This document shows positions 9,922-63,298 of a stretch of 64,000 nucleotides of DNA, in pieces. Origin of the DNA: Hormiphora californensis (Eukaryota > Animalia > Ctenophora). The notes beneath the pieces were generated by a model that saw only the letters and a program-made list of their open reading frames with translations, did no database searches and had not been told where the DNA came from. The stretch is from positions 1,612,001 to 1,676,000 of the forward strand of contig CM035357.1 in NCBI GenBank assembly GCA_020137815.1, given 5' to 3'. Every line of letters begins with the position of its first letter. Within the stretch, counting starts at the first letter, position 1. The translations under genes and the position numbers were made by a program.

Positions 9922-10089
9922 CCCACAGCTCAGTACTACAACAGGTATATCTCGTCCGAAGAACTGGGTGGTAACTCGTCATCTGTGTAGAAGTCTCTCC
10001 TGCCCCTTTTGTATCGAAATACTGGTCCCTGATTGGCTGATTACCAGTCACGTGACCTAAATAACGAGTTCTGATTGGTTGTTGTACCC

Positions 10090-14783
<4,694 letters not shown>

Positions 14784-27800: not shown

Positions 27801-30800
27801 CAATACATCGTTATCCCTCCCCTAACTTTCTATCTCTCTTCACTTTCTATTTCCCCTAACTTTCTATCTCTCTTCACTTTCTATCTCTCTTCACTTTTTA
27901 TCTCTTTTCAGAACACGTTTGCCCGGTGGTGCTGGGAGGTCCTTCTCCTGCTGTGTCTTCACAAGACTGACCTGGCAGAACACGACTCCCGTTCCAGGAA
28001 AATAAACAAACAAATGAGGTGAGAACTGAGTGATGAGTGGTTGATTAGAGCTCAATGACATTCCTTGATGAGTGGGTGATTATTTAATATTTGCATTACC
28101 TCACCATGCAATGGTATCATTGCCCCATTTTCGATTGGAATGATCATATTTATTCGCGATCACCCGGCAAAGCTCTGCAAAGCTTGACAAAGCTTGACAA
28201 CTCTTTGCAAAGAGCTTTTCAAAGCTCCATAAATCTGACCAACCACATATTACATAATACAGTTGGACCCCGATTTAACGGCACCCTCGGGGGAAAGGGA
28301 TTTTGTCCGTTAAATCGGGGTGTCCGATAAATCGGGGCCCGACTGTATATAGGATTATAATAAGGGAAACCAGAGTATGAGAGTAATTTTTGGGAAAAAT
28401 AACTAAAGGTGAATTTTTACTGCAACCTATGAACATTCACAAAACGGAACATTATAAATATCTCACGTTGAAACCTTTTTCGACAACAAAAAGTCCAGGG
28501 TAAAATCACTCTGAATGTGAAAACCTTTATCCTTTTTAGAACTAATGCAATTCTGTTTGAATCTTTTTGAAGAAAATCGTCCAGGAACCGACCGAAACAA
28601 GTAAACAACCAATCAAAACTCGTTATTTAGGTCACGTGACTGGTTATCAGCCAATCAGGGACCAGTATTTCCTGATTCGGTCGGTTCCTGCTGTCTACCC
28701 CTTGTGTTCATACACTTCAATCTCCGTGAACTCAAGACAGTCCCCCGTAGATTTATAAAACCAGAGTCCAAATCCACTTTTACCACCGCAATCCAGCCAG
28801 TACGTCTGATCCTCCACTGATTCTCCATCCCGCACATGGATGGTGTCAACAGTGCACGATGCCATTGAGTTATAGCCTTCATCCAACATCGCGTACACTA
28901 TCACCCCATCCAATCGAGCCCTGGAATTGAATAATTAGTAAATAATTGTATAATTAGTAACCATCGAGATTTACTCTTTGAAACACCCTGAATATCTTGT
29001 TATGTATACGAAACAGAGTCTAGCTAGGCAATGAATATCACAGTTCTTGAGTTGGTTGAGTCAAGAAATCAATTATACCTGTTCCAGTTGAATTTCCCAT
29101 TAATGACTTTGATTTTTCCAATGCTATACCGTCCATCGAAAAAGTACTTGAACCACTGATCTTGACCACTACACTCAGTGTGACTTGCAGTATTTAGATC
29201 TCCGTCAACCGCATTCTCAGCTGAAAAGATTACACCACGGGTTACAAAGTACAGTTATACAGTACAGTTATACAGTACAGTTTTATGGAAACAGTTGGTT
29301 TAGGCACACGATGCAGGGCGGTTGAGGGTTCAGATCAAAATGGCAAAGAACTAACCTGCAAGATCATAGTACTGGGAAGACATAGAAACTCTAGATGCCC
29401 TCAAGAACTTTCCTTGTTGGACATCATTATTATCTCCACAAGTGTTGCAGGTTTTCCTACAGTTGTCCCTCATAAACTGAAGGAACTCCGCGGAATCACA
29501 ATAACTTGCCCACGTGGGACATTTCTCACTGTATTCTTCATTGTCATAGCAATCACTAATCGAGTCATCATGATCATCTCCATGACACGCGTTACAACTT
29601 TTCTTACAGTCCACTAACATGGTTGCCGCTTCACTCTCACACTGCCCAGCCGCTGCCCGGTGATCACATCCTGGCATTTTGTTCACACAGTCAGGATCAT
29701 CAATCTCCTCCTCCTTACATAGACCACAAGTCTTCTTACAGTTGTCCCTCATGAATTGGACGTAGTTCTCGGCGTCACAATAACTCTCCCACGTGGGGCA
29801 GTTCTCACGATACTCTGCACTATCATCACAGACGCCACCATCATCATCACCATCATATTCATCATCATAGAGATCTTTTCCAATCAACCAAACCCCTTCA
29901 GTAGCAAAATGACAGATGTTCCGGCCGCGTTTAATGAAAATGAACCCCTTGTCCCCCCAGTCGGAGCCCCATGAGTTCTTTACCTCCCAGGAATACTGGT
30001 CATACCCAACCACTGCTACTGCGTGCCACACGCCACTTTCCTCTACCCAGCAACCATCGTAGTGGCCTGACCTTAGGAGGGGGGAGGTTGTTGTTCTAAC
30101 CCTCCTTTACATTTTTATAAAGAGCGTCGAGCAAGGCAAGAGGGATGAGTTATACGTGGGGGGGGGGGTGGCTGAACTTCAGTCACCACCCCCTGTTGAC
30201 AGTGACACGTGAAACGGGAGGGCAGGGAAACACAGAATTATGAATACATAATCATGATAATGCAATGATTCTTGTTAAAGAGCGTCGAGCAATGCAAAAG
30301 GGATGAGTTATACGTGGGGGGGGGGGGGGGCTGAACTTCACCCCCTATACGTGCAGCCGACTACCTATGTTTTTTAGTAACCACCGACCCTGAAACTGGT
30401 GTAACTACCGCAACTCAACCCTAAAACAACTCACCTGTAGGCATAGAAATCGTCTTCAATTCGTAAAGAACTGGTAACCGGTCCATCCTGAAGAGCGTTA
30501 ACCATTAAATTATCTTGTTCACTGACACTCACTGTTGGCTCATAAAACCATTTGATCTCGTTAATCTTTACTTCACTCTCAAACACGTTCTTGTGGGACG
30601 TGTAACTACAGTATCGGTCCTGTCCTGAGAGTTAGAAACAGTGGTAAAAGCGAGGAAATCTCCAATATAAGATAATATATAGAACAGACTAGAAGATCTG
30701 AATTTAGCGAAACCAATTTGAGTCCTATATTATTACCTGCATACTGAGCACTACTTGCAGCCCAAGCATAGTTTGTTTTGTTGACCCACCTGATGAAGAA

Positions 30801-36800: not shown

Positions 36801-39800
36801 CACACAACTCACATTATATGTCTGTGTGTTTGTTTGTCCTCTGCTTGTCACATCACTCTACTTCACATCTCTTGACAAGGGCACAGCTCAGTAAGCATAT
36901 AGTCTACTGCTCGCAGCGCATGTATTTAGTGCTACGTAGATTGTAGCACAGTGTTTTTTACAAAATATCAAATATGATTAACAGACGTAATATATATTTG
37001 AAACGCTTTATTTACTCCATCATGACTAGATAGTAAATAGTGAGTACTGGCCTAGGCAACTCAGTATTAGATCACTGGTCAGTACTACTGACCAGACTAG
37101 TGATCTAATACTGAGTTGCCTAGCTAGACTCTGTTTCGCGCCCCGTTAGAACATAACAAATACTGGGCAATTTTGCATTTGCGGGCATCGCACTATAGAC
37201 GCAGTACCCACGTACTATAGACGCATTATAGACGCATTATAGACGCATTATAGACGCAGTATAGACACACGCAATATAGACGGACTTTCGTAAGCAGCAG
37301 TATAGACGCAGTATAGGCGCATTATAACAGCAATATAAACGCATTTTTATAGACGCGACGCAGTATAGCCGCATTATAGGCGCACTACCCACCCCAAAAT
37401 TACCTTATAGACGCACTATAGACGCATTATAGACTGACTATAGCAGCACCATAAACGCTACATAGACGCATATAGACGCGTTATAGAAGCATTATAGACG
37501 CAAATCACTTTTTATAGACGCCGCGTCTATAAAAAACGTGCTTTTTTAAGAAGCACTATAGACGTACTCCAGGCTACAGTGCGATATTTGAGGCGCAGTT
37601 GGGCGTTTTATAAACGCATTTTTGTCGCATATAAAAGGAAGCAGTATAGACGCATTATAGACGCAGTATAGCCGCATGTGTGCGAAATCGATAAAGACGC
37701 AATATAGACGCAAAATAAGAAGGAGAGGGAGAGGGAAGGAGGAGAGCGAAGGAGAGGGAAAGGGGAGGGAGGGATACAGGGACAGAGACAGACGGATAAA
37801 GACCTGAGACAGACGGACAGAGTTTAAGATGGAGAGAGAGAGAGTAAGATGGAGAGAGAGTGAGATAGAAAAAGACAGAGATGGAAACAAACGGACAGAG
37901 ACAGACGGACGGACGGATCTCCCTCTCTCTCCATCTTAATCTCTCTCCATCTTAATCTCTCCGTCTGTCTCAGATCTTTGTGCATCTGTCTCTGTCTGAT
38001 CTGTCTCTGTCTCCCTCCCTCTCTCCCTCTTTCCCTCTCCTTCCTTCTCCCTCCCTCCCTCCCTCTCTCCATCTGTCTCTATCTGATCTGGTTCTGTATC
38101 CCTCCCTCTTTCCCTCTCCTTCCCTCCCTCCCTCTCTCTCTCCCTGATCTCCTTCTTATTTTGCGTCTATATTGCGTCTTTATCGATTTCGCACACATGC
38201 GGCTATACTGCGTCTATAATGCGTCTATACTGCTTCCTTTTATATGCGACAAAAATGCGTTTATAGTTCGCCCAACTGCGCCTCAAATATCGCAGCGTGC
38301 GTCTGAGTACGTCTATAGTGCTTCTTAAAAAAGCACGTTTTTTATAGACGCAGCGTCTATAAAAAGTGATTTGCGTCTATAATGCTTCTATAATGCTTCT
38401 ATATGCGTCTATGTAGCGTTTATGGTGCTGCTATAGTCAGTCTATAATGTGTCTATAGTGCGTCTATAAGGTGAATTTGGGGTGGGTACTGCGCCTATAA
38501 TGCGGCTATACTGCGTCGCGTCTATAAAAATGCGTTTATATTGCTGTTATAATGCGCCTATACTGCGTCTATACTGCTGCTTACGAAAGTCCGTCTATAT
38601 TGCGTGTGTCTATACTGCGTTTATAATGCGTCTATAATGCGTCTATAATGCGTCTATAGTACGTGGGTACTGCGTCTATATAGTGCGATGCCCGCAAATG
38701 CAAAATTGCCCAAATACTGAGCTGTATGATGATAGAATACCGTATCAACACATCTGTGATGGGCTGCATCTGAATTCGGATCCAGCCCTCTCCTATCGGT
38801 GGATGCCCATAGTACAAATCATTTCACCTTTATTATATTCTCCCTACAGGTCCTGTTCACCAACCCTGACATGACGATTGATGTTGCCTTTCGAAAGGCT
38901 GTCCTGAAAGCTGGTGCTGGGGAAGGAGGAGAGGAGTTGGAAGGTCTTACAATTTCTTCCATTGCCATTTATAGGTTCGTGCAGGGGTTTGTTTGTGTTT
39001 TAAAGATTTCTGTTAAATTTGCAAATAACCAATCACCGCGGTTACATAATTCCAGTGTCTAGTTAAAGTGAAAAAAGTCCGATCTGTTTGTGCAATGTGA
39101 ACTGCAGTCGTGTGTCATATTAACAGGAACCGACCGAATCAGGAAATACTTGGTGATGACATCCCGGCTTCGTTTGCCGCGCTTCGCGCGGCCCTAGTGT
39201 AGGGGGGACCGCGTCACCAAGGAAATACTGGTCCCTGATTGGCTGATAACCAGTCACGTGACCTAAATAACGAGTTCTGATTGGTTGTTTACTTGTTTCG
39301 GTCGGTTCCTGCTTATTAATCCGTTAATTCCTCTCACTCAGGTGGGCGACCCTACTACACCAAGTACCCATGGACCACCCCTTGTTACCCTTTGCCTGGA
39401 GAGAGTTCTTCTGTCTCTACTTCAACAGGATAGCCCCCGAGTCGTCTGGTGTTGGCCATCGATATTTCCAGGTCGGTAGATTGAAATATATGGGAGATAT
39501 ATAATTTTGGTGTTTATGGGTGACTAAGTTTAGAGAAAATGTGGGGTAGTTGAGCATTGGGATCGTAAATTGTGCGAACTTATAATTAAGGGCTCATTGA
39601 ACGAATTTGGAAAAACTTAAGATCGAGGTCAGATTCGGTAGTTGGCATTTCGCCACTTCCCGCCAAGTTCACCCAAAGATAGTTCTGAGCCAGAGCTAGA
39701 GCTTCATTGTATTTCTAACCATCCTTGTGAATGAATTTTAACCTTTTTCCTAGAAACGATCTAGGATCACTCTCCGTTCTCTCTTTCCGAGAAATGGCTC

Positions 39801-42800
39801 ATCCAAGATATCACATATTCCGTTCCTAGTAGTTGCTCACAGTGTGTACATGTTGTTTCAGGGCATGTTTCAAGTGAGAGAGATCCGGGCTATCAAACAG
39901 CGTCTTGTGGAAGCATCCAAGAACTTTGAACTCGGTAGGGGGACTATATTTCCTAGTTGTTAAACAGGAACCGACCGAATCAGGAAATACTGGTCCCTGA
40001 TTGGCTGATAACCAGTCACGTGACCTAAATAATGAGTTCTGATTGGTTGTTTACTTGTTTCGGTCGGTTCCTAGTTGTTAAATATATTCCCAGGAACTCC
40101 TGGTCGACATATCATCTCTCTGTTCTATCACATTTTATCATGCACAGTTAGAGGCCACCCAGCTCTAGGTATTCCCAGAAAGATAAAATGCGATTTTTCC
40201 ATTCTCTTCCCTGAATCCCATTGTATTTTTCCCAGAAGAAGAGACAGAAGAAGAGATCACAGAGGCTGTATTATTCCGGACGAAGCTCTCCCACTTTTTC
40301 CTATCCTTGTCACTTTGGACGGATGAGACACGGCTCCAGGAGGCGAATCTCTTCCTCCCTGGGCTACCAGCCCAGTACTGCAGTGATAAACTAGAAGAAA
40401 TATTCAGGGTATGAAAATGTACTGCTCTTATCTTGTCTAGCTGCTTTTTAACTGTGTTTGAGTTGTGTGTCGCTACTCGTTGTACCTGGTAGAATTTGTG
40501 TTATTGCCAGAAAACTGTTTGTTATTGATGGGAAATTTGAATTATATTTAGTTCATAAGAACTGATGAGCAGTAAAGGACCCCATTGGTACAATGTTGTT
40601 TACCATTGTTCATTGTTGTTGTTGTAAGCTGCTACACTGCTGCACTACCGTCCTGTGATGTACTAAACACTGCACTACCGCACTGTCCTAAATAGTAAAT
40701 ACTGCACTGACGAAAGGGGCGTCCTGTAAACTGTCTGAAGATCATAGTGCATTGTATCCAAAATCAGCTGATTTTAATCAGTCTTAGGAATACAATAGCC
40801 TCAACTGCCAAAAACAAATCTTTGATAGCGTAAACAGGTTTTTGTGATAAGCAATCACCATGTTATTATAACTTTAGATACCAGATTAAAACATCAGTTT
40901 CATGTTTCCATCTTAAATGCTTCTTCTTAGTATTGCCATGCTTGTTCTGTATCCATTTTTGTACAATTCCCTTATTTCCAAGTTGCTTCCATCCTGATCC
41001 TCTAACTAACCCCTCCTCTCTGTGTTAGAACGAGAGTTGTCCCTGGTACGATATGGTTGATATATGCCAGCTGGACCTGGACATCCACAATGATATTGAT
41101 GAATGGGGCAGGTAGGTTTAGATCATTTATTTCAGGAACCGACCGAAACAAGTAAACAACCAATCAGAACTCGTTATTTAGGTCACGTGACTGGTTAGAT
41201 CAACCAATCAGGGACCAGTATTTCCTGATTCGGTCGGTTTCTTTATTTAGTACCACCCTGGCTACGCCACTGATCCCTCCATTTTCTAGTTTGAAAGACA
41301 CTGATCCCTGATTGGCTGATAACCAGTCACGTGACCTAAATAACGAGTTCTGATTGGTTGTTTACTTATTCCGGGCGGTTCTTGCAAAACATCCCTCCAT
41401 TTTCTAGTTTGAAAGAGACACTGATCTCTGATTTTGAGTCGCTTGACACTGTTTCCTTGCTCCGGAAAGTATGAACAATTCAAAGTATGAACAATTCAAC
41501 TCTGATTCAGGTATAGCGGCCGAAGGTACACGCCAAGATTCCCTAGTAAGAGGGAGGAAACGTCTCAATCCCTAGTTGAGCTTCTCTACACATACGTGAG
41601 GTATAATTAGGAAACAAACAGCGATCACGTGACATACCTTATATGGTGTTAATATATCACGTGACATACCTTATATGGTGTTAATATATCACGTGACATA
41701 CCATCACGTGATTCAATTACACATGTGTATCGACCCAGTTTCCTCTTCCCTGTTTTAGGGACTTACTCAACAGCCAGGTTTAAGAGGTCCACGCATTTTC
41801 TTGTACTATCGAGTTATATGTAACAGCTGTCAATCCAGTATTATATTCTCCAGTAACACTCCCTAATTCTTGTTACTTAACATTTCCTTCTTGTTCCCTC
41901 TCCTCAGTCCCCAGTAACACCCCCTATTTTTTATTTTGTTTATCTCTCTAGTAACACCTCTTGTTCCCTCAGTAAGAATATGGTTGAAGCAGCCCCTCCC
42001 CCGGAACTCATTATCCCCCAGTCCCCAGTAACACCCCCCTGTAACACCCCCTATTTTGTATTTTGTGTATCTCTCCAGCTACCAGTAACACCTCTTGTTC
42101 CCTCAGTAAGAATATGGTTGAAGCGGCCCCTCCCCCGGAACTCATTATCCCCCAGTCCCCAGTAACACCCCCCTGTAACACCCCCTGTAACACCCCCTCT
42201 CCTCAGTAAGAACATGGTTGAAGCAGCCCCTCCTCCGGAACTCATTATCCCCCAGTCCCAGATACCCTCTCCCCTGTAACACCCCCCTGTAACACCCCCT
42301 GTAACACCCCCTGTAACACGTCTTGATCCCTCAGTAAGAACATGGTCGAAGCAGCCCCTCCCCCGGAACTCATTATCCCCCAGTCCCAGATACCAGAGCT
42401 CCCTGAACTATCGGGTGATCCTACTGATCTCCTCAGTACCGTCGGTAAGAAGAGAGAGGGAGAAGGAGCTTGGTTAACAATTTACTAACGAGTGGTTAGC
42501 CAGATAATATTTGGTTAAGAGTAGGTTAACATAATATTAAGAGCAGGTTTTAACAGCTCCCTAATATATAATATATAGGGGTTAACAGCTCACTAATATA
42601 TAGGTTTTAACAGCTCCCTAACTCCCCTGCTGCAGGCCCTTACTTTGGTAAGCTAAGATCGCATGCTGAGAAGTTTGTAGAGCTGACGCAGCGGCTCCAG
42701 GCCCTTGACTCAGCGTATCTGGAGGACGTACCCAACATGTTTAGTAACAAGATCATACCTAAGGTAACTAGGATAACTAGGGTAACCAGGGTAACCAGTA

Positions 42801-45800
42801 ATGTGAAGCATGTAGATCTATATCTGCAGATAACGTGAAACATGCAGATATAGTGTTATTATATTGCTCCATTTATAGAGACCTATTGACCACTGTACTA
42901 TTGCATCCAATCGGGATCCAATCCTATCAATTCAAATCAATGACACAGATTTAACAATCCAAACTGTATAGTTAGTGATTTCTTTCTTGACGTTCTTGAC
43001 AACCCCCTTGACAACTTGGTTACGAAGTTACCCCTTGCCAGCGCGCGCAAAGGTCGCCCGGCGACCTGAGGGGTTGTTTCGTAACCCCCTTGACAACCCC
43101 CTCCTTATATGGCAGCTATTCTGACACACATTACCCCCTCATATTAGACAGAGCTGGTACCTTGTTACAGTCGGATAGGAACAATGGGAAGGTGTAGTGG
43201 TGCCGCAATGATCACAATACACACTACTCAGTTTGTGGAGAATGTCGCTGTACACGAAGGTAGGTGAAACATGATAAGAGAGGGGGATTGGGAGTTAAGT
43301 GACTTAGTGGGGTAGGTAAAACATGATAAGAGAGCCCGGGGATTGGGAGTAGGGGGTAGGTAAAACATGTGACACACTAATTTCAGCTGACAAAATATAT
43401 GACGTCTCGGCCAATGTGCTTTATATATAATCATCCAGCTAGGACGTAGCTCCGGGAGATCTCCCAGAAGTACAAGGGAGCTGTCGATCAGTTATTAACA
43501 TTTGACTATGTATTATCAGGTATTACGGAGAACAGGAAACAATACGAGGAAGCATTGTCTCTCTGTCGTCTGGATCTTGATAGTGATGTTTGCACCACTG
43601 CCATGTACCTCCAAAACGTACGTGATAATCACTCCGAGCTAACTCCGTACTTGTTCTATAGAGGGCGCCAAAAACCGATAGTGCTCGATCAATGAGTGAG
43701 AGCTGGTTCAAAACAATTGTTTTTACTTGCCTTGTTCGATCCTAGTCCCTCCCCGCGCCCCGGGTCTGACAAAACAACTTCGTACCTACAGTTAACCTAT
43801 GGGTCTTAAACATGATATAATGCTTGGTTCGCCCGAACTTTAAACTTTTAATTAAACTGTGTTATATAAAACTAATTTATAATAATTTCCTACCAGATTG
43901 TATCAGAGTTGTACCACGCATCGCAAAGTTATTCGGATATGGGACGGAAGTTATTTTACCACATTATCGATCATCTCACCACCGCAGTATGGCAGTACTC
44001 CCCCTCACAACAGATCTTCGCCTTCAGCATCGACTACCTCGGACAATCGTTTATCAGGTAAAACAAATGAGGTAAAACAGATGAGGTTAAACAAGTGAGG
44101 TAAAACAATTGAGGTTAAACAAGTGAGGTAAAACAAGTGAGGTAAAACAGATGAGGTACTAGCAAACATGTACGTTATATATATACGAAGTTGGTTTTGA
44201 AAACAGTACAATTCACCCGCTCAGTGAGTTCCAACCTCTAGTACAGGGTTTATTGTGTTAGGGTTTAGAATCCTTGTTTTCACTCCTCCATCTTCACGCG
44301 GATACATTAGTTGAGTGCGTGGTATATATTCTTGTGTTATGTATACCGAAACTAATTTGTAAATCTTGTAAATCTTCCCAGAAACAACTGTGATGAAACG
44401 CTGCCCCTTCTCAACTGTATCCTCTCCAAGGCTGACTTTGCCACCGTCCTCGCTCCACTCTTCCAACCGAATCAGGGCTATGAGCACTTCGTAACCGTCT
44501 ACTCCTACGTCATCACCTCCCTCCCTCGCTGTGATGCAAGTATCGGATTTGCCGTTCTGTCCAAGTTTGACTTCCGAAGCTGGTTGGCTACACCCCACTC
44601 CACGGTTCCGAGGTGTAAGGAGATGCTGGATGCCATATTCTCTGGATTCTGTGCTTACCCGGTGGAGGAGGAGGATAATAACAGTGTCATGATGTTATAT
44701 GATGCACTCAAGTTACATCTCAGGTTGGTTCATATGTATAGTGGGCAGGAACCGACCGAATCAAGAAATACTGGTCCCTGATTGGCTGATAACCAGTCAC
44801 GTGACCTAAATAACGAGTTCTGATTGGTTGTTTACTTGTTTCTGTCGGTTTCTGTATAGTGGGGTTGGGAGGTGATCGGGAGGGGTTTATGGGTTGCTGA
44901 AGAACTGATGATGAGAGCTCAAGAACTTAACCCGAACCACAGCTTCAATCGATAATTTTTCCACCACCAACTTTTTTCCTGTTTCCACTACCATGATCTG
45001 TTTCCCCGCCAGGCAAGTTCTGCTGAACAGATTGTGCCCACTACTGCAGTACACAATAGAAAAGGCTCTGGCCCTGTCCCTCAAGAATGGCAAACAAAAA
45101 GCAGTTTGGAAAGTTATATCAGGTAAGAGCCGTAATTTGAATCGAATAGCCAAACCTAGACTGGCCGAGAAAAAAGTATTTCTTAGGTTTGGCCTTTGCT
45201 CTTAGAGCAGTTTAGTAGACTATTAAACTGCGTCTATTTTATCAGAAGTATTAGCGACGGACCATGCCCAGGAGATGCTTACCCTCAACACATGCCACAA
45301 AACTCTGTACGAACTTTCAAAATACTTCCTTCAGGTAAGGTTCACATAATTATCAAGGTTGCTATGGCAACAAAAATTCATATGTTCATAGTTTTTCATC
45401 GCAACCAAAAAGGGGTGAAAAGTGCATCAAATTCACACACCAGGAACCGACCGAATCAGGAAATACTGGTCCCTGATTGGCTGATAACCAGTCACGTGAC
45501 CTAAATAACGTGTTCTGATTGGTTGTTTACTTGTTTCTCCCACAGTTCAAGAAAGCGATCCTGGACACGGCTACCCCTGATCTCTACTCTCACTGGTCGC
45601 ACTACACCTTGGAATTTGTGGATCTCTTTTACTCGCTCTGTAAAACTTATATCACAAAGGCGGCCATTCTTGGTGAGTTTTAACCAAGTGGTTACCAAGT
45701 GGTTACTAAGGGGTTACTAAGGGGTTACTAAGGGGTTACTAAGGGGTTACCAAGTGGTTACTCGCTCTGTAAAACCTATATCATAAAGGCGGCCATTCTT

Positions 45801-48800
45801 GGTGAGTTTTAACCAAGTGGTTACCAAGTGGTTACTAAGGGGTTACCAAGGGGTTACCAAGGGGTTACTAAGGGGTTACCAAGTGGTTACTCGCTCTGTA
45901 AAACAAAGGCGGCCATTCTTGGTGAGATTTTATTTAGATCTGAGGGAGGGGGGTCGAAAGTTGTATCCAAAACTAAAAAAAAAGTAAATCTAACCCGCCT
46001 ACAACCTGTACATGTGTTTTTATCGGAGATATAAAGCTGGTATAATTACAAAAAAGTCAATATTATAACCCCCTACAAGCTGGTATTATACATGGTGTAC
46101 ATGTGTTTTACGTCCCAAGTCTGATAATGACAATCAATATATAACACATGATCTCTCCTGCAGCTCCCAATGAGGGCCAGGCAGAGTGTATCTTCCGGAT
46201 AACATGTGTAGTATTTGGTCCCTGGATTCTGGTGTACAAAGAGGGATGTCTGCCATGGTCTTCAAACCACCTTGAGGTAGTGTGGGAAATACTGGTCCCT
46301 GATTGGCTGATAACCAGTCACGTGACCTAAATAACGAGTTCTGATTGGTTGTTTACTTTACAAACCGCGATTACCTACAACTATGGCTCATGCAACTATG
46401 GCTCATAAAATCTATGAGCCATAGATGCATGCAACTATGGCTCATAGATTTTATGAGCCATAGATGCATACAACTATGGCTCATAGAAATGTGATCTGAT
46501 TGGTTCTATGAGCCAAAGCTAGTGAGAGTGAGTGACACGTGAGTGACACGTGAGTGACACGTGAGTGACATGTGAGTGACACGTGAGTTTTCGAATCATG
46601 TAATATTAAATGAGCACAAATGTAAACGATTTACATAATGATAAATCTAATATTACATAATTAAAATTACACTATCAGTTCATCTTGGATATAATGGTAA
46701 AAGGGGTCCTTCTTTGGACAGTTCATAGAGCATTTCACGTGAACCAGCAGCTCCTTAACACGATGTTTATTCAAATCTATGATCGGATAGGTACTAAACA
46801 GCCGCCTTGCATTATCACTATCAGGATCCACAGTAAAAAACTCTCCAACAGGTCTGATTTTCGAGAAAGTAGTATAGGTAGGATGTTCCCAGAAATTGCC
46901 TGGCTAAAGTTTCTGATCTTTCACACTCTTCCAAAACCTCCCGGTACTCGTTGAACGTTGTAGTGTTGTTCGTGACGTCGATAACAATTATAGCTAGTGA
47001 ATCCACTAACAAATTCTAATGAGCGGGATGGATATGTGACAGTGTCACATATCCACCCCCCTTACTGACACGATTCTGGGATGCGCCATTAGCAGAGTGA
47101 AACGATACGAGATACGAAACTTATGATTCGGGGGAGCTCATTAGCAGTGTGAGACGATACGGTATATGGAACATGATTCGGGGAAGCTTATTAGGAGTGC
47201 TAGACGATATGAGACACGATTCGGAGAATGTTTTATCGCTCTTTCTATCTATCTCTATTTCTTTTTGTCAATTATCTTGAAAACCAGATGAGATACCTAC
47301 TCATACTAATGCGAGGAAGCTACAAACTTTGGTGCCCTTATTTTTGTCCATACTCCTTTTCCTTTTTTATCTGGATGTCGGCTCAGCCCCGTTGTTTTTA
47401 GGGGGATATGTTGTTGTTTTAGATGGAATGGTTTGAATTTGGTATGTTTGGCAAGACTCGAAAAAAAAACCCAACGCATTCCATCTAAAACAACATATCC
47501 TCCTAAAAACAATGAGGCGAGCCGATAGGCTCTTATTACCAACAGTAGGGCACTAAACTCACCAAGTGTGTAGCGTCAGCTCGCATTATAGTATAATGGT
47601 AGGCACCTCCTCTGGTTCTCAAGTCCAAGATAATTGACAAAAAGAGATAGAGATAGATAGAGATAGATAGAAAGAGCGATAAAACATTCTCCGAATCGTG
47701 TCTCATATCGTCTAGCACTCCTAATCAGCTTCCCCGAATCATGTTCCATATACCGTATCGTCTCACACTGCTAATGAGCTCCCCCGAATCATAAGTTTCG
47801 TATCTCGTATCGCTTCACTCTGTAAATGATGCATCCCAGAATGGTGTCAGTGAGGGGGGTGGATATGTGACACTGTCAAATATCCATCCCGCTCATTAGA
47901 ATTTGTTACACTACAACGTTCAACGAGTACCGGGAGGTTTTGGAAGAGTGTGAAAGATCAGAAACTTTAGCCAGGCAATTTCTGGGAACATCCTACCTAT
48001 ACTACTTTCTCGAAAATCAGACCTGTTGGAGAGTTTTTTACTGTGGATCCTGATAGTGATAATGCAAGGCGGCTGTTTAGTACCTATCCGATCATAGATT
48101 TGAATAAACATCGTGTTAAGGAGCTGCTGATTCACGTGAAATGCTCTATGAACTGTCCAAAGAAGGACCCCTTTTACCATTATATCCAAGATGAACTGAT
48201 AGTGTAATTTTAATTATGTAATATTAGATTTATCATTATGTAAATCGTTTACATTTGTGCTCATTTAATATTACATGATTCGAAAACTCACGTGTCACTC
48301 ACATGTCACTCACGTGTCACTCACGTGTCACTCACGTGTCACTCACGTGTCACTCACTCTCACTAGCTTTGGCTCATAGAACCAATCAGATCACATTTCT
48401 ATGAGCCATAGTTGTATGCATCTATGGCTCATAAAATCTATGAGCCATAGTTGCATGCATCTATGGCTCATAGATTTTATGAGCCATAGTTGCATGAGCC
48501 ATAGTTGTAGGTCACCACAAACCGCCTTGAGGTCTAGTTCGGGATTATCTTGGGTTTTTTTACTGATTTGAGCACATCTATTATACTAAGTTGCAATTAT
48601 TGTTGAACATTAGGCATGTTGGCGCAATGTTTTGGAACGGTGTGTAAGCAGAAAATTATTAATTATTAATTATTAATTAATATAACCAGCATGTGTTTCA
48701 GGATGCGAATGAGATGTTACGAGCGTTTACAGAGTTGTTGAAACTGATGAAGGATCACATTACAGCTGATATTCTCATTGGTGATGTGACACCTCTTCTA

Positions 48801-51800
48801 AATAGATTCTGGTGGTGAGTAATATACTGAATGATTGGTTGTATTTACAATGTTGTAGAACCTAGATAAATCTATAACTTCTAGACTCATCTTGGTTCAA
48901 CGGTCTTTGATTTACTTCATTTTAGCACGGCCGTTCTCAATTTAACACGTACGTCAATCGATCCATTGTTTGGATGGGCGTGATGTATGATCCCACAATC
49001 AATTAAACAACTCTCACCCCTCAGTTGCACTTGCAGTATACTGCAGTAGGGGGTCTTTTTTTTCTTCAAACTGTTGTAATATTCTACCCTCACTCACGTC
49101 TCAGATGTTTTTATTTATAATATATTTCTCCCGGAACCTCTTCTCTCTCCTCTCTCCCCTAACAACTCTCTTCACTGTCTCCTAGGTATTATCTGGAGAT
49201 TCTGGGTCACCCCGTAGTACCCTCACACACCACCCACACCTACTACAACCAATCACAACTCGTTATTTAGGTCACGTGACTGGTTATCAGCCAATCAGGG
49301 ACCAGTATTTCCTGTTTCTTAACACCTCTCTCCCAGGTATTATCTGGAGATTCTGGGTCACCCCGTAGTCCCCTCACACATCACCCACACCTACTACAAC
49401 CACTTCTCAATGTGTGGGAAATACTGGTCCCTGATTGGCTGATAACCAGTCACGTGACCTAAATAACGAGTTCTGATTGGTTGTTTACTTGTTTCTTAAC
49501 ACCTCTCTTCACTAGGTATTATCTGGAGATTCTGGGTCAACCCGTAGTCCCCTCTCACATCACCCACACCTACTACAACCACTTCTCAATGTGTGGGAAA
49601 TACTGGTCCCTGATTGGCTGATAACCAATCACGTGACCTAAATAACGTGTTCTGATTGGTTGTTTACTTGTTTCTTAACACCTCTCTCCCAGGTATTATC
49701 TGGAGATTCTGGGACACCCTGTAGTCCCCTCTCACATCACCCACACCTACTACAACCAATCAGAACACGTTATTTAGGTCACGTGACTGGTTATCAGCCA
49801 ATCAGGGACCAGTATTAACACCTCTCTTCCCAGGTATTATCTGGAGATTCTGGGTCACCCCGTAGTACCCTCTCACATCACCCACACCTACTACAACCAC
49901 TTCTGGTCCCTGATTGGCTGATAACCAGTCACGTGACCTAAATAACGAGTTCTGATTGGTTGTTTACTTGTTTCTTAACACCTCTCTTCACTAGGTATTA
50001 TCTGGAGATTCTGGGTCACCCCGTAGTGCCCTCACACATCACCCACACCTACTACAACCACTTCTCAATGTGTGGGAAATACTGGTCCCTGATTGGCTGA
50101 TAACCAGTCACGTGACCTAAATAACGAGTTCTGATTGGTTGTTTACTTGTTTCTTAACACCTCTCTTCACTAGGTATTATCTGGAGATTCTGGGTCACCC
50201 CGTAGTCCCCTCACACATCACCCACACCTACTACAACCAATCAGAACACGTTATTTAGGTCACGTGACTGGTTATCAGCCAATCAGGGACCAGTATTCCT
50301 GCTTTTAACACCTCTCTCCCAGGTACTATCTGGAGATTCTGGGTCACCCCGTAGTCCCCGCACACATCACCCACACCTACTACAACCACTCAGAACACGT
50401 TATTTAGGTCACGTGACTGGTTATCAGCCAATCAGGGACCAGTATTAACACCTCTCTCCCAGGTACTATCTGGAGATTCTGGGTCACCCCGTAGTCCCCT
50501 CACACATCACCCACACCTACTACAACCACTTCTCAACTCTACCGTGGGAGAGCTTTGTGCCAACCTGCGATGTTATCCAGTCTATTCTGCGGTGTGTTCG
50601 GGGGAATAGGAGCAACATTGATCTTGTTATACATGTCATGACTAAGGTGAGTGCAGTTTATATATTGTTATTATACCAAAACTAATTGAAATTAGTAGGC
50701 CGGAAAGGTTGCCCTATGATTTGAGCTACCTTTGTCACCGTAACATTCACGGGGTACAGACAGGGTATAACAGATGCTTCTTCTATCTTCAAAAGGGAAT
50801 GTACTGGTGCCAAAGGTAGCTCAAATCATAGGGCAACCTTTCCGGCCTACTAATTTCAATTAGTTTTGGTATAATTTGCATCATTTTTGGGATTTTTTTA
50901 TCCATTTACATGTAGTAGAACAGGTACAGAGAGGATGGAATCGCGAAATTTTTATTTTTGACGTCATTTTGACGTCATAAAATTACGTCACGACGTTATG
51001 GCGTCATGATGATAACGATATATCATCAGGATTACCTAGATGAAGATACTGACCAAGTTTGAGATCGATTGGATGAGATTTGAGTCCGCTATAGCGAAAA
51101 AACCCATATCGTCATATCTATTTTTAAACAGTCATAACACTTTAGACGCGTTTTAAGACCCTTATACATCTAGTTTTGAAAACTCGCGATATAGTTTCTG
51201 AAAGTTCAGACAATTCTCTTTCCATGATATAGTCTTCGTTTTTCGATTAGAATCCGTCTTAAGGGTGTAAAATGAGCTCAAAGAATTTGTCTGAGTCTGA
51301 AAAATGACTACTTTAAGACGTTCTGTAGGACGTTCCTGGTGATGAAAAGGGACCTCACATCGACTAATGCACACACATCCAGTAGATCTACCAGATGTGA
51401 AAACGAGAAGTTTCTATCTCTTTTCGTTTGGCGTGAATATGGTTTATAAAAAGCGTCTCTCCTACGCGCGCGCGCGCACGTGCGCATATGTGTTACACTG
51501 AATCTAGGGCAAATGGGACCTGTCTGTAACTTCGGTTCCAGATGAGATAGAGACTTGAAATTTTAAACTTGAGTCAAAGACCCCAAGCCGGGTATACATT
51601 CCAAATTTCAAGTCAAACGGATGAAAGAGAGCCACGCTATAGCCTTCTGAAATCTGGGTTTTCAGGCAAAACACCCATAAAACGTATAACTGCGTTTCTG
51701 GCGGCGCTTTTGGGGGGAGGGGGAATGGCAACCTTTGCGCTTGCCAGCGCAGTGATGTCACGCGGTGTCACGTCATGAATATTAGGACTACAAAAATATC

Positions 51801-53677
51801 TGGTATATTGTGCAGTTAGTTAATTGAGTGTAGATTGTGAGAAGAGTTTGTTAGTTTTTCCACCCAGCTCACTGTACATTTGAGAAATTCCACGAGGGTT
51901 AGATCAGCCGCCAGAGTGTCAGAAATGATGTCATTCAAATTTCGAAAGGTCTACTTTTGTCCACTTTTTAACACGCGAAGATATTTTCAATCTGTCCTTC
52001 CCTTCTCTCTACCTCTCAAGATAAATAAGACGATGATCTAACCCTGCACATTAGGATAGCTCACACTCTGTCACTATCTCTCCACCCTTCCAGTAGACCG
52101 GGAGTAGACCTCTTTATCTTCTACAATTTCACAATCGCACACTTTAACCCAGGAACCGACCGAATCAGGAAATACTGGTCCCTGATTGGCTGATAAACAG
52201 TCACGTGACCTAAATAACGAGTTCTGATTGGTTGTTTACTTTCTCAATCGCACACTTTAACCATTAACGTCACACATAGCAGCTCATTCTGCTGATAAAT
52301 TGTCGTAGAGAGATTGTGTGGGGGTAAAGTGAAGTGTGGTGCAGGTCAGTTTGTTTGCGTGCTGCAGTAGTAGTGGAGGAATATTATTCAGGAATATGAT
52401 ATAATGAGCTGGACTAGTGTTTTAGTAGTAACCTTGCTGATGATGCATGTAGGAGGGGGATTCACAAGTAGAATGAGGTCTATATTATCCTCTTACTTCT
52501 CTTGAATCCCTGGTCTCACTGTTAAGATGCTCATTTCTATCCCATTTCTTGTCGCATCGCACTTGTCGCTCTCTTTTCTTCTTTTCTCTCTCTCTCTCAC
52601 ACTCTCTCCCAGCCTCATTCTTCCTCACTCTCCCCCTGTCTCTCACATGACACATCTAACATTCATTTCTCCCACACCATAAACAAACAAACAAACAAAC
52701 ACCTAATATCAGCAGGAACCAACCGAATCAGGAAATACTGGTCCCTGATTGGGTGATAACCAGTCACGTGGCCTAAATAACGTGTTCTGATTGGTTGTTT
52801 ACTTGTTTCGGTCGGTTCCTGAATATCAGACTCTCTCCTCTCCATCCAGGTTAACTGGAAGACAGGTGGTTGACGAGCTACAGAAGGAGTCCTATGCATT
52901 CGACACGCTGGTTGACACCCTTGTAACGCTCACACTCAACCAGGACATATTTACTAAATTTGAAACACAATTCCTGGCTATCACAGGCAGTTCAAATCAT
53001 TGGACCTTAGACTACTCAGTGATGAAGGGTAAGTCCCTGTCAATTTATTTGATTTAGTACCATTATATCGTTGTCTATCTTGTTAAGGGTAAGTTGTTTA
53101 ATGTTCACGGTGTCCCTTAAGGAGGTGAAACCTCGACTAGATATACTAGATATATAATATACTCATGGGATCACATTTCTCTGTTTGAAGCTAAAATGAA
53201 GGACCCCCTTCCTTTTGCTATCGGATGTGTGTCAGTGTGTGTATAACACTGATTTTCACTGCCTTTTTGTACGTGTGTTTGTCCTGTCAGCTTGTGCAGC
53301 TCTGTACAATGCACTCTTGTGACTTGACGATAAGCACCTATATTTCCATATTCTTCTATTCACCATTCCTTTATCTCTTGTTTCTCTCCTCTATTCTTCT
53401 ATTCTCTCTTCCATCTCTCCTTCCTACTTACTCTCTCTTTTCTACTCCCGTTTCTCTCGTTAATATTTATCGCCCTTGCTGTATTTTTCACATATTATTA
53501 CATTACAAATCTATTAGATAGTGTCAGATGACCATCTTGACATTTACGATATGAATATTTACGCATTTATAAGTATCACATCATCATCTCCATATCCTCT
53601 TGCCTCGACAGTACATCGCAATTGGACTGACGATAAGCTATATCCAACTATATTCACGTTCTCTCTCTTCTCTTCTA

Positions 53678-53766
<89 letters not shown>

Positions 53767-53927
53767 GTTTCTCTCGTTAATATTTATCGCCCTTGCTGTA
53801 TTTTTCACATATTATTACATTACATATCTATTAGATAGTGTCAGATGACCATCTTGACATTTACGATATAAATATTTACGCATTTAAGTATCACATCATC
53901 ATCTCTCATCTATCCCTTTCTATCTCA

Positions 53928-54009
<82 letters not shown>

Positions 54010-57000
54010 CCCTCTCTCTCTCCCTCTCTCTCCTAACAATCCTCCCCTTCATCCAGGTTTGAGAGTATCATGTCGAGAGTAGATCGAACTGTGCACCATG
54101 GAGATTATATCCAGTCAATAACATGTATAGGTAGGTGTTATGGTAACCATGTTATGGTAACCATGGTAACCATGGTAACCATGACAAATGTTTTCTAATA
54201 AATGCACAACTTCTATAATTATTCGTGTACATGGAGACAGTATGATCGTTACTAACGATGTAAGGGATAATATGATAGTTGAGACACAGATTACACATTA
54301 TTTTCCCGCCACATAAAGGAATTATCTTTGATTTTGTAACACGTGATGTCTCCTCTTTGTTTCTTTCATTAGTTCCTCTCTCCCTTTCACAAACAATGCG
54401 TGCTAGGCTTGTGTACTCAAGCACGATACACCTGGGTTCTGGCCCATCCCACCACTATCCTCCTACCCCCAAACTAAAACCACTCTCTCCTCTGCAGGTC
54501 ACCTGTTACAGTTCCTGGGAACGTTGTGCAGGTTCAATCAACTGAGTGCGAGTCACAAGAAACAAGTTACCTACTTTAAACACATCGCTAGCATCGTCAC
54601 CAAGATCTCCAACAATCAGGTTTGAACAAAATCTGTCTTAGATATTCAGTCCAGGAACCGACCGAAACAAGTAAACAACCAATCAGAACTCGTTATTTAG
54701 GGTCACATGACTGGTTATCAGCCAATCAGGGACCAGTATTTCCTGATTCGGTCTGTTCCTGATTTAGTCGGTACTAACGGTCGGTAAACTGAGCTTTGTG
54801 GTTATAAATTTGATATGATACGATATGAGTCACAGTACCCCCCCCCCCCCTTTTTGACAACCTCTTCTATCAAACTCTATCCTTCCTCAGCAATTCCTCT
54901 ATCCTTCTATTCCTCTTATATTCCTCAGCAATACGTGGAGAACCTGGTAGGAGCACTACTCTCCAACGTTGAACAAGTGTTCTACCTCTCCTCCCCTGAT
55001 GAACACATCACAGAGCTCCTCTCGACTATGTTGGGTGGAATATTCAACACCACCCCTGCTGATCCTACCACCCATACTGCTACTGCCAAGTTAGTCATGG
55101 GGGAGCATTGTTATAGTTGTTACTGCTACTGCCAAGTTAGTGGGGGAGCATTGTTAGTTGTTACTGATATTAAATATTGGGCCACCACCCATACTGCTAC
55201 TGCCAAGTTAGTGGGGGGGGGAGAGCATTGTTAGTTGTTACTGATCCAGCCACCCATACTGCTACTGCCAAGTTAGTGGACGGTGGACCACAATAGTTTA
55301 GTGAGCTGTTACTTTCTCACTAGCTGGGGTCGGGGGAGCATTGTTAGTTGTTACTGATCTATTAAATATTGGGCCACCACCCATACTGCTACTGCCAAGT
55401 TAGTGGGGGAGCATTGTTAGTTGTTACTGATATTAAATATTGGGCCACTGTACACTGAGTGAGCACTGCAGCTGCGGGAGCACTGTTACTGTTTCAATAG
55501 GGTATAGTTCAGAGTCTAGCTGGCCAAACACTGTTTAGTGTGAGCAACAAAATTTGATATTTAATGTCAAATAGTTTTGCCAAACTCACTATATAAATAG
55601 TTTTACTAAATAACCTCTCTCCCATAGGAAGGTTGAGTTTCATCTGAAGGACAGGGGAAGCACTAAGGATGGATTCTCATTTACCCAACTATCTCTTCTA
55701 TACCTTGCTGCAGTAACGGCCTCCCTTCACAACCTTAAAATGCTGACAGTCGCCACTGAGGTAATAGATACTAGGCCACGTGTTGCGTCAGTTGATTTAT
55801 TGTCTCACAAAAGACTGTCCTTTCCGAATCTAAACAGGGCCGAAGATACATTCATGTAGTATTACAGCTACTGTTCTACTCCTCTATAACCCCATCTCTC
55901 TAACCCCCATCACCACCCTCAGACGGTGATTGAAAGCTACTTTGTCCACTGTGAGAACAGTTACCCAGTCCTTAGCGTCAGTTGGAGGACCTTACGAGAG
56001 AGATTCCACCTGTCAGACATGATGTTCGATAATTTTGTATCCCACTGTATAGCCGAGAGTTGTCCTCTCAATCTCTACCTCTACACCACACACCTGCTAA
56101 TGAGGTAAAACTGATCAGTTCGGAAACTTTAGGGTAATACTCTTACAAGTTGGTCCAGATAGTTACTATCTAGTTACATTGGTTACCATGGTTACTTTGT
56201 GTTAGTAACATTACTACAAGTATAAAGTTTAGTAAGTTCGCGTGTGGCAACATTGTAACATTCCAGATCTACCCACTTGACAGCTTGTTATACTAATTAC
56301 CTACACTTTACTTGTCTATTAGGTCCTCTAATTGTGTCATGTCGCTGCTGCCTCCCCTCTAGATTCTGGACATTGATAACTTTACTAAGCTTGTGTAAAC
56401 CCTTTGAAGAACACAAAACACACTAAAAAAATAAGGCCACTAAACACTAGGTAGCCAAGTTTCCCCTACCTCTGGTACCAAACTACATGAACTATGACAA
56501 GTAAAAACTAAACTTTCATGTTTCAGAGCTGACGGCCCAGATGCGAGGTACTCTGTTGTATCAATGTTAGTGGATGCTGCCTCGCGGCTCTATCCCAAAC
56601 CCGGAGAAGAAGGGAAAATGTTGCTGATCTGGTCCAAGATTTTTGATATTTTATTAGATCTTCACCACACAGGAATACGGTAATTTCCAGGAACCGACCG
56701 AATCAGGAAATACTGGTCCCTGATTGGCTGATAACCAGTCACGTGACCTAAATAACGAGTTCTGATTGGTTGTTTACTTGTTTCGGTCGGTTCCTGTTAA
56801 GAACCCTCTACAGCAGTCTGCAGAATGATGTGAGATCATTGACCTCCCAACTTCTATCTCATTTTCTAATAAACACACTTAGAATACACACCTGTGTAGG
56901 CATCATAGTCATCAGTTTTACACACACAGATCCCTTGCCGTATTATAATAGCACTCTTGTAATTCTGCGGTGTCTCTTTTTTCTCAACGCCCCTCAATTA

Positions 57001-62131: not shown

Positions 62132-63202
62132 AGTTGGGAGTTAGGGCAGGTGACACCTGGAGATAAGGTATTTGGGAGTTAGGGCAGGTGACACCTGGAG
62201 ATAAGGTAGTTGGGAGTTAGGGCAGGTGACACCTGGAGATAAGGTAGTTGGGAGTTAGGGCAGGTGACACCTGATGGAGATGAAGTAGTGGGAGGTTAGG
62301 CCAGGGTGGTTGGTAATATGGAAGTGTAAAGTTAGGGTAGGGTGGTTGGTAATTAATATTATTCAAGAAAACACGGTGACTTTTGGGGATGTGGCATTGC
62401 CACCACAGATGAATTTAATTCGAATGGCTCATTTCCCCAATACAATAAGCATCCTACAACACTATTATTTAAGACCCACGTCCCACAGTCCACACCGGGT
62501 ATCTAACGGTCTATTGTCAAGGAGACAAAACTTTATCTTTTTCCCATCATTCTTCATAAAGTTTTTGATAATGATATAATGGGATAATTGGAGTTGCTAT
62601 GGCAATTCTTGCGTACTTAGTACTAGGACGTGTGTACATGATGGCAAACATTACCCCTACAGCATATTACAGTTGGGAGTTAGGGCAGGTGACACCTGGA
62701 GATAAGGTATTTGGGAGTTAGGGCAGGTGACACCTGGAGATAAGGTAGTTGGGAGTTAGGGCAGGTGACACCTGGAGATAAGGTAGTTGGGAGTTAGGGC
62801 AGGTGACACCTGATGGAGATGAAGTAGTGGGAGGTTAGGCCAGGGTGGTTGGTAATATGGAAGTGTAAAGTTAGGGTAGGGTGGTTGGTAATTAATATTA
62901 TTCAAGAAAACACGGTGACTTTTGGGGATGTGGCATTGCCACCACAGATGAATTTAATTCGAATGGCTCATTTCCCCAATACAATAAGCATCCTACAACA
63001 CTATTATTTAAGACCCACGTCCCACAGTCCACACCGGGTATCTAACGGTCTATTGTCAAGGAGACAAAACTTTATCTTTTTCCCATCATTCTTCATAAAG
63101 TTTTTGATAATGATATAATGGGATAATTGGAGTTGCTATGGCAATTCTTGCGTACTTAGTACTAGGACGTGTGTACATGATGGCAAACATTACCCCTACA
63201 GC
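62132..63202. repeat. Apparently identical ~530-bp tandem duplication (offset 539 bp)
   Basis: Identical 89-aa ORFs at 62310 and 62849. Confidence 0.9.
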
Positions 63203-63298
63203 CTACTATTATTTAGCTCAGTTCCTTAGATCAGAGGACATTTACAACTTAGACTTGTTATATATATATAGCACATAAAGTGATACACCTTCCTTGTT

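Follow-up and report, generated by a model that had tools for sequence, protein, structure and literature searches.

A nine-copy acceptor array with alternating transposon cores in an EPG5 homologue of Hormiphora californensis, a likely by-product of mutation

In the ctenophore Hormiphora californensis, a stretch of 64,000 nucleotides (GenBank assembly GCA_020137815.1, contig CM035357.1, positions 1,612,001 to 1,676,000 of the forward strand; hereafter the window, to which all coordinates, censuses, counts and expectations refer) contains a large gene homologous to EPG5, an autophagy gene. In front of one of its exons the 3' splice site and the beginning of the exon are found nine times in tandem, and the copies are separated by inner fragments of a MITE (miniature inverted-repeat transposable element) in either orientation. 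This array is real; it is an unusual structural variant, mutational in a way already known, and likely a by-product rather than a splicing device. Its most probable origin, to which we give a chance of roughly 55%, lies in two template-switch errors, each of which would have duplicated about 100 bases of host DNA with a MITE core as filler, likely followed by unequal exchange.

Organization of the array

A motif search of the window for AGGTA[TC]TATCTGGAGATTCTGGG finds nine matches, at 49184-50462, and the exon motif is confined to this locus. The AGs of the nine acceptors are at 49184, 49335, 49514, 49691, 49832, 49993, 50172, 50321 and 50461, and units 1-8 measure 151, 179, 177, 141, 161, 179, 149 and 140 nt; the periods picked out by Tandem Repeats Finder are 179 and 149, with 93-99% match. 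Each unit combines about 18-20 nt of the 3' end of the intron, the first 73-82 nt of the following exon and an inner MITE fragment. The intron end comprises a branch-point-like TTAAC, a pyrimidine tract and AG, reading CTAAC...CCTAG in the native first copy, and the exon copies start with GTATTA in seven of nine cases and with GTACTA in units 8 and 9.

Eight MITE fragments lie between the nine copies, forward in units 1, 4, 7 and 8 and reverse in units 2, 3, 5 and 6. On the 109-bp full-length element the reverse fragments span positions 13-91 (13-84 in unit 5) and the forward ones 24-88/93. They are devoid of the 15-bp terminal inverted repeats, of which the reverse type keeps three bases, and of the 8-bp target-site duplication (TSD); what flanks them is copies of about 100 nt of host DNA. 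The locus is laid out as follows (a slash in a sequence marks a joint or splice junction).

49159-49185, + strand: original 3' splice-site module, first of the nine acceptors (CTAAC, pyrimidine tract, AG)
49186-49336, + strand: unit 1, forward; exon copy +1 to +66/73, MITE core 49245-49314 (positions 24-93), TTTC remnant, acceptor module TTAACACCTCTCTCCCAG
49337-49515, + strand: unit 2, reverse; exon copy to +82, insert TGTGTG, MITE 49417-49495 (91 to 13), acceptor module ...TTCACTAG
49516-49692, + strand: unit 3, reverse, recombinant; MITE 49596-49674, then the forward-type acceptor variant CTCCCAG
49693-49833, + strand: unit 4, forward short form; MITE 49752-49816, 11-nt deletion flanked by TT relative to unit 1
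49834-49994, + strand: unit 5, reverse with an 18-nt deletion flanked by CT; MITE 49903-49974 (84 to 13)
49995-50173, + strand: unit 6, reverse; MITE 50075-50153, 99% like the neighbouring period
50174-50322, + strand: unit 7, forward long form; MITE 50233-50297
50323-50462, + strand: unit 8, forward short form; MITE 50382-50446, the last 18 nt being the acceptor module of the functional exon

Joints between exon copies and MITE fragments

Units 1, 4 and 7 have one and the same forward joint, at which exon and MITE overlap in the 7-nt ACAACCA; the probability of at least 7 nt of microhomology at a single random joint is 4e-4. The joint of unit 8, CAACCACTCAG, reads CAACCAC/TCAG, with an overlap of 1 nt. 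Units 2, 3 and 6 reach the reverse MITE via TGTGTG+GGAAATACTGG: the exon runs to +82, a 6-nt insert TGTGTG follows, and the element is entered at position 91. The entry in unit 5 is TTCT/GGTCCCTG. At the far end of the reverse type, a single extra T separates MITE position 13 from the acceptor module.

The joints also carry information on the order of events. The forward fragment of unit 1 closes with ...CCTG, and between it and the acceptor module stands TTTC. The native intron lacks this TTTC, which corresponds to MITE 16 to 13 as found at the end of a reverse fragment; the remnant therefore points to the forward type having been made inside an existing reverse-type unit, by a 2-nt TG joint. 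Since the joints and 6-nt inserts are identical within a type, units of the same type are best read as copies by descent and not as repeated switches. Unit 3 appears to be a recombinant because its reverse-type beginning is followed by the acceptor variant typical of the forward type. Units 4 and 8 have the form of unit 1 minus 11 nt, flanked by TT.

When founding joints and secondary deletions are taken together, microhomology of at least 2 nt is found at 7/14 joints compared with 16% expected (p = 0.003), and 5/14 joints carry inserts of 1-6 nt. The strict joint script halts at single-nucleotide polymorphisms (SNPs) between copies, and the joints at 10016, 41300, 52150 and 46285 were re-read by eye.

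Much of this had been anticipated by the original prediction, made from the letters of the sequence. The nine AG/GT units, each with pyrimidine tract and AG followed by GTATTA or GTACTA, are there in that number; the exact switch from exon to MITE at ACAACCA was recovered in units 1, 4 and 7 (7 nt), with the 1-nt overlap in unit 8; and the units said to enter the opposite MITE strand do so, units 2, 3 and 6 via TGTGTG and unit 5 via TTCT. That the fragments are not cut-and-paste insertions agrees with their lack of usable terminal inverted repeats and of an 8-bp TSD and with the host copies of about 100 nt at their flanks. The breakpoint alignment it had called for gives microhomology above chance. 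Its phrase 'stitched by microhomology' suits the forward joints (7 nt and 2 nt) and fails for the reverse ones, which have 6-nt and 1-nt inserts.

Presence of the array in sequencing reads

Is the array a property of the genome or of its assembly? It was checked with the unitigs of public short-read runs, X1 (likely the source sample) and X5 and X6 (a second sample). The X1 unitigs are exact over the unit-specific stretches 49684-49750, 50273-50334, 50467-50532 and 50517-50681. Those of X5 and X6 are exact over the exon-to-reverse-MITE joint at 49381-49440/42, with depths of 967 and 2797; the flanking single-copy unitigs have depths of 109-258 and 408-688. X6 also covers the boundary between units 3 and 4 (49658-49725) and a stretch of unit 5 (49834-49897). 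The second sample has SNPs of its own in e7, the coding exon upstream of the array, including A>G at 48742, which gives the Arg found in the related protein P0001 described below. The exon-to-reverse-MITE joint is real, occurs in both samples and is multi-copy, unitig depth being a rough proxy.

There is only the slightest chance that a long-read assembler expanded or mis-joined a simpler locus. The window does contain small indel errors, such as a missing base at 52980/81 that all covering read sets restore. Against an artefact stand the exact likely-source unitigs at the first three of the unit-specific stretches, together with a second sample that has different SNPs and yet contains the joint at several-fold single-copy depth as well as the unit 3/4 and unit 5 stretches.

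The missing base lies in an EPG5 exon, where the window is without one base at 52979-52982 and the frame shifts between ...QFLAI and HRQFKSL. The unitigs that restore it are from X3 (same sample, with two alleles) and from X5 and X6 (second sample); X1 has no unitig there. The gap looks like an indel error of the assembly rather than damage to the gene. Further 1-nt gaps relative to the reads are at 52838, 52845 and 52864.

Variants among the nine exon copies (49186-50528, exon positions +2 to +66) are synonymous in six cases and non-synonymous in three, and 7/9 fall at codon position 3; the p value of this silent-site bias, about 0.007-0.02, is post hoc. The second sample has one more silent difference, A>C at 49864. 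The bias towards silent sites suggests that the exon copies may have been seeded from, or exchanged with, functional alleles.

The MITE family and four sister loci

The MITE is abundant in the window. A 36-nt pattern of its core has 30 matches in 64 kb compared with 0 expected. A search with a full copy as query gives 32 matches, eight of them in the array and 24 outside it; the latter represent 23 copies (18 full-length and five truncated). Altogether the MITE makes up 4.6% of the window. The reference copy is:

6662-6770, + strand: full-length MITE of 109 bp with a 15-bp terminal inverted repeat, CAGGAACCGACCGAA

An 8-bp target-site duplication is a hallmark of hAT elements, and from its 8-bp TSD the family is here presumed to be hAT-like. 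By strict coordinates, 10/18 full-length copies have an 8-bp TSD with at most one mismatch; three more, judged by eye, look offset by one base. Many copies are 97-100% identical to each other and have intact TSDs.

Host duplications with a MITE core between the two copies occur at four other sites of the window. Three are listed first; the fourth, in intron 6 of the array gene, is given as its two parts.

9936-10169, unstranded: two-copy version; 80-nt duplication (9936-10015 and 10090-10169, 75/80 identical) around MITE 10016-10083 (positions 90 to 23)
41273-41416, unstranded: duplication around a MITE, 26 nt exact (about 36 nt with an indel); MITE 41300-41381 (85 to 4/1)
52129-52262, unstranded: duplication around a MITE, 21 nt with one mismatch; MITE 52150-52241 (109 to 18), one terminal repeat intact and the other end truncated
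46263-46358, + strand: end of exon e6, donor and reverse MITE core, CAAACCACCTTGAG/GTAGTG; MITE 46285-46358 (91 to 18), starting 8 nt into intron 6
48518-48533, + strand: the end of e6 with its donor repeated as a decoy, CAAACCGCCTTGAG/GT; 15/16 identical to 46263-46278, with a chance expectation of 5e-5

The joint at 41300 sits in a homeologous patch (12/15), and the joints at 52150 are present in unitigs of both samples (X3 record 11 and X5 record 17). Adjacent host duplications (21, 26 and 80 nt) accompany 3/5 truncated copies outside the array compared with 0/18 full-length ones (Fisher p = 0.006), and 4/5 compared with 0/18 when the intron-6 site is counted (Fisher p = 0.0006); a self-BLAST list of local repeats, which missed the 80-nt duplication at 10016, was excluded from the counts.

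The intron-6 site resembles the array in a further respect. Its fragment and the reverse units of the array have GTGTGGGAAATAC in common, and also five bases beyond the MITE, GTGTG; there are only four such sites in the window, and the two loci are 3 kb apart. The shared GTGTG hints that one may have been copied from the other, or both from a common nearby donor. Because the gene holds both a duplicated donor module and a multiplied acceptor module, the mutational process would appear to be blind to function.

Between the two parts of the intron-6 site lies a further element.

46369-48516, unstranded: foldback (near-perfect palindrome) of 2.15 kb, with the 9-bp TSD ACAAACCGC at 46360-46368 and 48517-48525

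Its arms, of up to 439 nt, are 100% complementary, and it occupies most of intron 6. The foldback appears to have inserted later, between the intron-6 MITE core and the decoy donor. It was considered as the cause of the truncation of the intron-6 MITE at position 18, and rejected: the lost part of the MITE is not at the foldback's other end.

The host gene

The window is eukaryotic, with GT...AG introns and a large gene on the + strand. A 141-aa frame at 44356-44781 matches the protein P0001 (683 aa, source label eukprot) with 96% identity, and the best named relative of P0001 is 'ectopic P granules protein 5 homolog [Glandiceps talaboti]' (24% identity, 99% query coverage, E = 2e-37). The similarity identifies the host of the array as an EPG5 homologue. 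By tblastn, P0001 falls on 15 exon pieces from 43939 to 56105, and distant homologues extend from about 22.6 kb to 57.9 kb. A Pfam search with eight exon-sized frames and P0001 gave nothing above threshold. The exons on the two sides of the array are:

48702-48814, + strand: upstream coding exon e7, ending ...TTCTGGTG; donor GTGAGT starting at 48815; tblastn match to P0001 residues 294-338
50463-50646, + strand: functional exon e8 (copy 9), alone among the copies in continuing ...HFSTLPWESFVPTCDV...; ends AAG, donor GTGAGT at 50647

P0001 reads ...LLNRFWW, then YYLEILGHPVVPSHITHTYYNHFSTLPWESFVPTCDV...VMTK, then VNWK, which corresponds to e7 joined to a single exon copy. In this protein ...NRFWW precedes one YYLEILGHPVVPSHITHTYYNHFSTLPWESF, and the continuation ...STLPWESF is found in copy 9 only; e8 is 98% identical to P0001 residues 339-401. 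A distant EPG5 protein aligns with 50464-50616 across the duplication breakpoint (31% identity, E = 1.8e-5; tblastn, query names absent from the table), so the conserved state is the single-copy exon. Copy 9 is open to its donor, and 8/8 decoys meet an in-frame stop 27-34 codons after the AG. The first residue of P0001 is an internal Met, and its end falls at a TAA that an unspliced donor supplies; it may therefore derive from a transcript or from gene prediction.

Origin of the array

Given the shared junctions within unit types, the array would need no more than two founding events, followed by unequal exchange and by three small deletions. In the founding event of the reverse type, a nascent or broken 3' end would leave the exon at +82 and copy the MITE in reverse from 91 to 13. 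It would then come back to the locus at the branch point, some 105 nt upstream, giving the arrangement H-R-H (host copy, reverse core, host copy). The forward type would arise by exit at +73, via the 7-nt ACAACCA that the exon has in common with the MITE, and copying of 31 to 93 in the forward direction, with rejoining inside the end of the existing reverse fragment at the TG joint. Unequal sister or allelic exchange would multiply and mix both unit types, and three microhomology deletions (CT, TT) would yield the short forms. Duplication and filler would be explained in one step, because a backward re-entry follows the excursion onto another template. The joints as read here appear to be the signature of replicative template switching, or of alternative end joining with templated insertion, and not of a transposase. 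The iterative template switching of the original prediction survives in part: switching or break repair fits the filler, the two orientations, the 7-nt joint and the four sister sites, and the identical junctions speak against an iteration for every unit.

What would make the inner part of one MITE a repeated template? The predicted fold of the single-stranded MITE DNA has an energy of -22.8 kcal/mol (z -5.5 and -4.8; 0/200 shuffles as good) and is a hairpin with a 15+2-bp stem and a loop at 19-91. The filler spans of 13-91, 18-91, 23-90 and 24-93 come close to this loop. Because the fragment limits match it, the loop of the hairpin may be the accessible template, and synthesis would halt at the stem. 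We tentatively suggest, as a possibility well short of even odds, that the MITE hairpin loop is a preferred ectopic template of stalled or broken DNA ends in this genome, whose visits would leave duplications of 20-105 nt, MITE cores in either orientation and copies of splice modules (in one gene, nine of an acceptor and two of a donor), and that the gene would survive its eight strong decoys only by re-splicing from them or by skipping them.

Several points weigh against the template-switch history. The founding joints of the reverse type are without microhomology (6-nt and 1-nt inserts), and such blunt or insert joints fit end joining of a captured fragment equally well. The intron-6 fragment ends at MITE 18 and the array fragments at 13, so that neither can be the other's full template, and a shared flank of 5 nt is weak evidence for a template in cis. 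The match with the hairpin loop comes from four to five fragments, two of them possibly of one origin. P0001, if it is a gene prediction, is no independent evidence of splicing. For the second sample, unitig depth gives no more than a hint of the copy number, and the window assembly has small indel errors, which make 1-nt differences between units unreliable. The history itself is a parsimony reconstruction from one haplotype.

The main competitor supposes that excised linear MITEs, unable to reintegrate and trimmed at both ends by exonucleases, were end-joined into staggered breaks, that fill-in of the long 5' overhangs made the host duplications, and that unequal exchange expanded the array. 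Such capture would account for fragments, found in both orientations, from which 12-23 nt are missing at one end and 16-24 nt at the other, for the several joints that are blunt or have 1-6-nt inserts, and for the abundance of a family that looks recently active, with its 97-100% identical copies and intact TSDs. It is rather unlikely all the same, since it requires staggered breaks of 21-105 nt at five sites with no evident source, and leaves unexplained the clustering of the right-hand limits at 90-93, the 7-nt ACAACCA joint, the 12/15 homeologous joint at 41300 and the five extra non-MITE bases at two loci 3 kb apart. Two template switches followed by exchange remain the preferred origin.

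Four simpler candidates were rejected. A forward type made by simple inversion of a reverse core takes an inversion and two extra deletions, compared with one two-joint event. Unequal recombination between flanking MITEs needs a MITE in the exon of the functional copy, where there is none. An 'introner'-type origin does not suit a MITE that starts with CAG and has no GT...AG in the right order, and target-primed reverse transcription does not suit fragments that have no poly(A) or 3' signal and are truncated at both ends.

Splicing across the array

The mRNA is predicted to join 48814 to 50463. The simplest way to this choice would be exon definition, set by the GTGAGT donor that lies 184 nt downstream; a transcript that used a decoy is predicted to have a premature stop. 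By eye, the pyrimidine tracts of the first acceptor (H1) and of the acceptors that follow reverse fragments are longer than that of the functional acceptor, and because some decoys are better equipped in this way, the choice of the correct acceptor needs explaining. The array can be regarded as a natural experiment on splice-site choice, with eight full modules of branch point, tract and AG upstream of the functional acceptor; exon definition, RNA hairpins and re-splicing are candidate ways in which the correct site wins. The one possible RNA run (X20) gave a single contig, which matches only a MITE copy from elsewhere.

Could the units work as recursive (ratchet) splice sites that neutralise the decoys, as the original prediction had proposed? 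In this case e7 would first join one or another decoy AG, the donor made anew by that step, TGGTG/GTATTA, would be re-spliced from AG to AG as far as copy 9, and the array would persist by this means. At 9/9 sites AG/GT is indeed accompanied by its own TTAAC or CTAAC and a pyrimidine tract, the decoys with longer tracts make some escape from decoy use seem needed, and weak donors (GTAATA, GTTTGA and GTAGTG) are used elsewhere in the EPG5 homologue. Yet such re-splicing is improbable. The GT that follows each AG simply belongs to the start of the exon and was duplicated together with the acceptor. A ratchet point would call for a consensus-like donor, of the GTAAGT/GTAAGA type. As judged by eye, T at +4 and T at +5, which GTATTA/GTACTA would bring, occur in 1/13 and 2/13 donors of the EPG5 homologue. 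The segments would be 140-179 nt in an intron of 1,648 nt, whereas those of Drosophila are on the kb scale: the available text of one report on Drosophila ratchet points gives introns of 11,341-132,736 nt and segments of 2,596-63,580 nt (10.1101/006163). Exon definition from GTGAGT accounts for the right choice without re-splicing, and the analogous donor duplication in intron 6 is without the AG/GT shape.

It is highly improbable, too, that the array is a selected device at the RNA level, in which pairing of the four forward with the four reverse cores in the pre-mRNA would loop out the decoys, or in which the cores would regulate EPG5 (by double-stranded RNA, editing or unproductive splicing), or which would serve as a reservoir of exon variants for exchange with the functional copy. 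The predicted fold does pair F1:R2, R3:F4, R6:F7 and R5:F8 (F and R being the forward and reverse cores of the numbered units) in stems 59-67 bp long, with acceptors 2, 4, 6, 7 and 8 inside them, and the exon-copy variants are biased to synonymous third positions. However, acceptors 1, 3 and 5 (and 9) are outside the predicted stems, and pairing is a trivial outcome of mixed orientations. The synonymous bias, besides being post hoc, is also expected if the copies were seeded or converted by polymorphic functional alleles. Mutational error is the more probable account of the locus.

Comparison with known systems

Replicative template switching, known as fork stalling and template switching or microhomology-mediated break-induced replication (FoSTeS/MMBIR), reportedly produces rearrangements that, together with those of polymerase-theta end joining, are like the array in several ways: a duplication, a foreign segment at the joint in either orientation, and microhomology of 0-7 nt or a few extra bases. 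The template may likewise be nearby in cis. FoSTeS/MMBIR events are on a scale of kb to Mb, whereas the array and its sisters involve about 20-105 nt and have the inner part of the same MITE as filler at five sites in 64 kb. Unlike them, too, one site here grew to nine copies, and the outcome is a germline one inside an intact gene.

In plants, filler DNA and tandem duplications are said to result from paired nicks or from abortive gap repair of hAT elements (Ac/Ds). Here the likeness lies in the short tandem duplications, the filler from elsewhere and the hAT-type family. Abortive gap repair in plants keeps both termini and makes internal deletions, whereas in the array both termini are lost and host DNA is duplicated.

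To our knowledge, template-switch duplications with inserted segments have been found at larger scale and without one favoured filler. A limited literature search found no description of MITE cores without terminal repeats as recurrent filler of short host duplications, and absence is not proven by it. The present locus adds an acceptor array of nine copies whose MITE cores alternate, together with four sister loci in the same 64 kb. If the proposed origin is correct, a small transposon can shape genes without transposing, its inner sequence being copied as filler and the neighbouring host DNA duplicated, and short tandem arrays and duplicated splice sites would have a concrete, countable origin. 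On the less probable reading in which the hairpin loop is a preferred template, the MITE would act as a transposon-templated, transposase-independent generator of tandem arrays and decoy splice sites.

Two other systems are similar in form. In MITE-derived tandem repeats and satellites, as far as the available text of PMC9659126 describes them, the repeat originates in the element itself and spreads along with it. Like the array, these have the MITE in a tandem unit and expand via break repair and unequal exchange; unlike them, as that text presents them, the array has a unit that is about 60% host intron and exon, a single locus and alternating MITE orientation (PMC9659126). The ratchet points of Drosophila, in the text available from two sources, have AG/GT preceded by a pyrimidine tract as the array does (10.1101/006163; PMC8605326). 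By that description they differ from the array, where the donor half looks weak and the site was copied from the start of an exon rather than being a conserved zero-length exon.

Other repeats and further copies of the MITE

A direct tandem duplication of 538 nt lies at 62132-63208 (99.6% identity), and self-comparison of the window gives many local direct repeats without a MITE (38 pairs). Short tandem duplication is generally common in this genome.

Four full-length MITEs are without a recognisable 8-bp TSD (4-6 mismatches), at 4579-4687, 9809-9921, 28582-28690 and 56688-56796, which would fit exchange between copies or some other rearrangement. The copy at 45441-45537 is truncated at position 13, the limit also of the reverse fragments of the array; a flanking host duplication was looked for around it and none was found. 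It stops 8 nt short of the AG at the acceptor of exon e5 (...CTTGTTTC/TCCCACAG/TTCAAG), and most of the e5 pyrimidine tract comes from the MITE. Nested in another full-length MITE is a 69-bp element (39151-39219) with inverted ends of its own, TGGTGA...TCACCA, and a 9-10-bp duplication, (A)GGAAATACT; it appears to represent a second family of small elements.

A metagenome scan with the MITE variant ending ...TATTTCCCACAC gave 0 matches. The scan with the MITE core gave three contigs with diverged relatives of the MITE, whose likeness to the array locus is limited to the element. One of these, the marine metagenome contig L003 (1-586), contains the coding end and stop of a papain-family gene (cathepsin L-like, by eye), with a diverged MITE copy about 10 nt downstream. 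From this layout, relatives of the MITE therefore adjoin genes in another marine organism.

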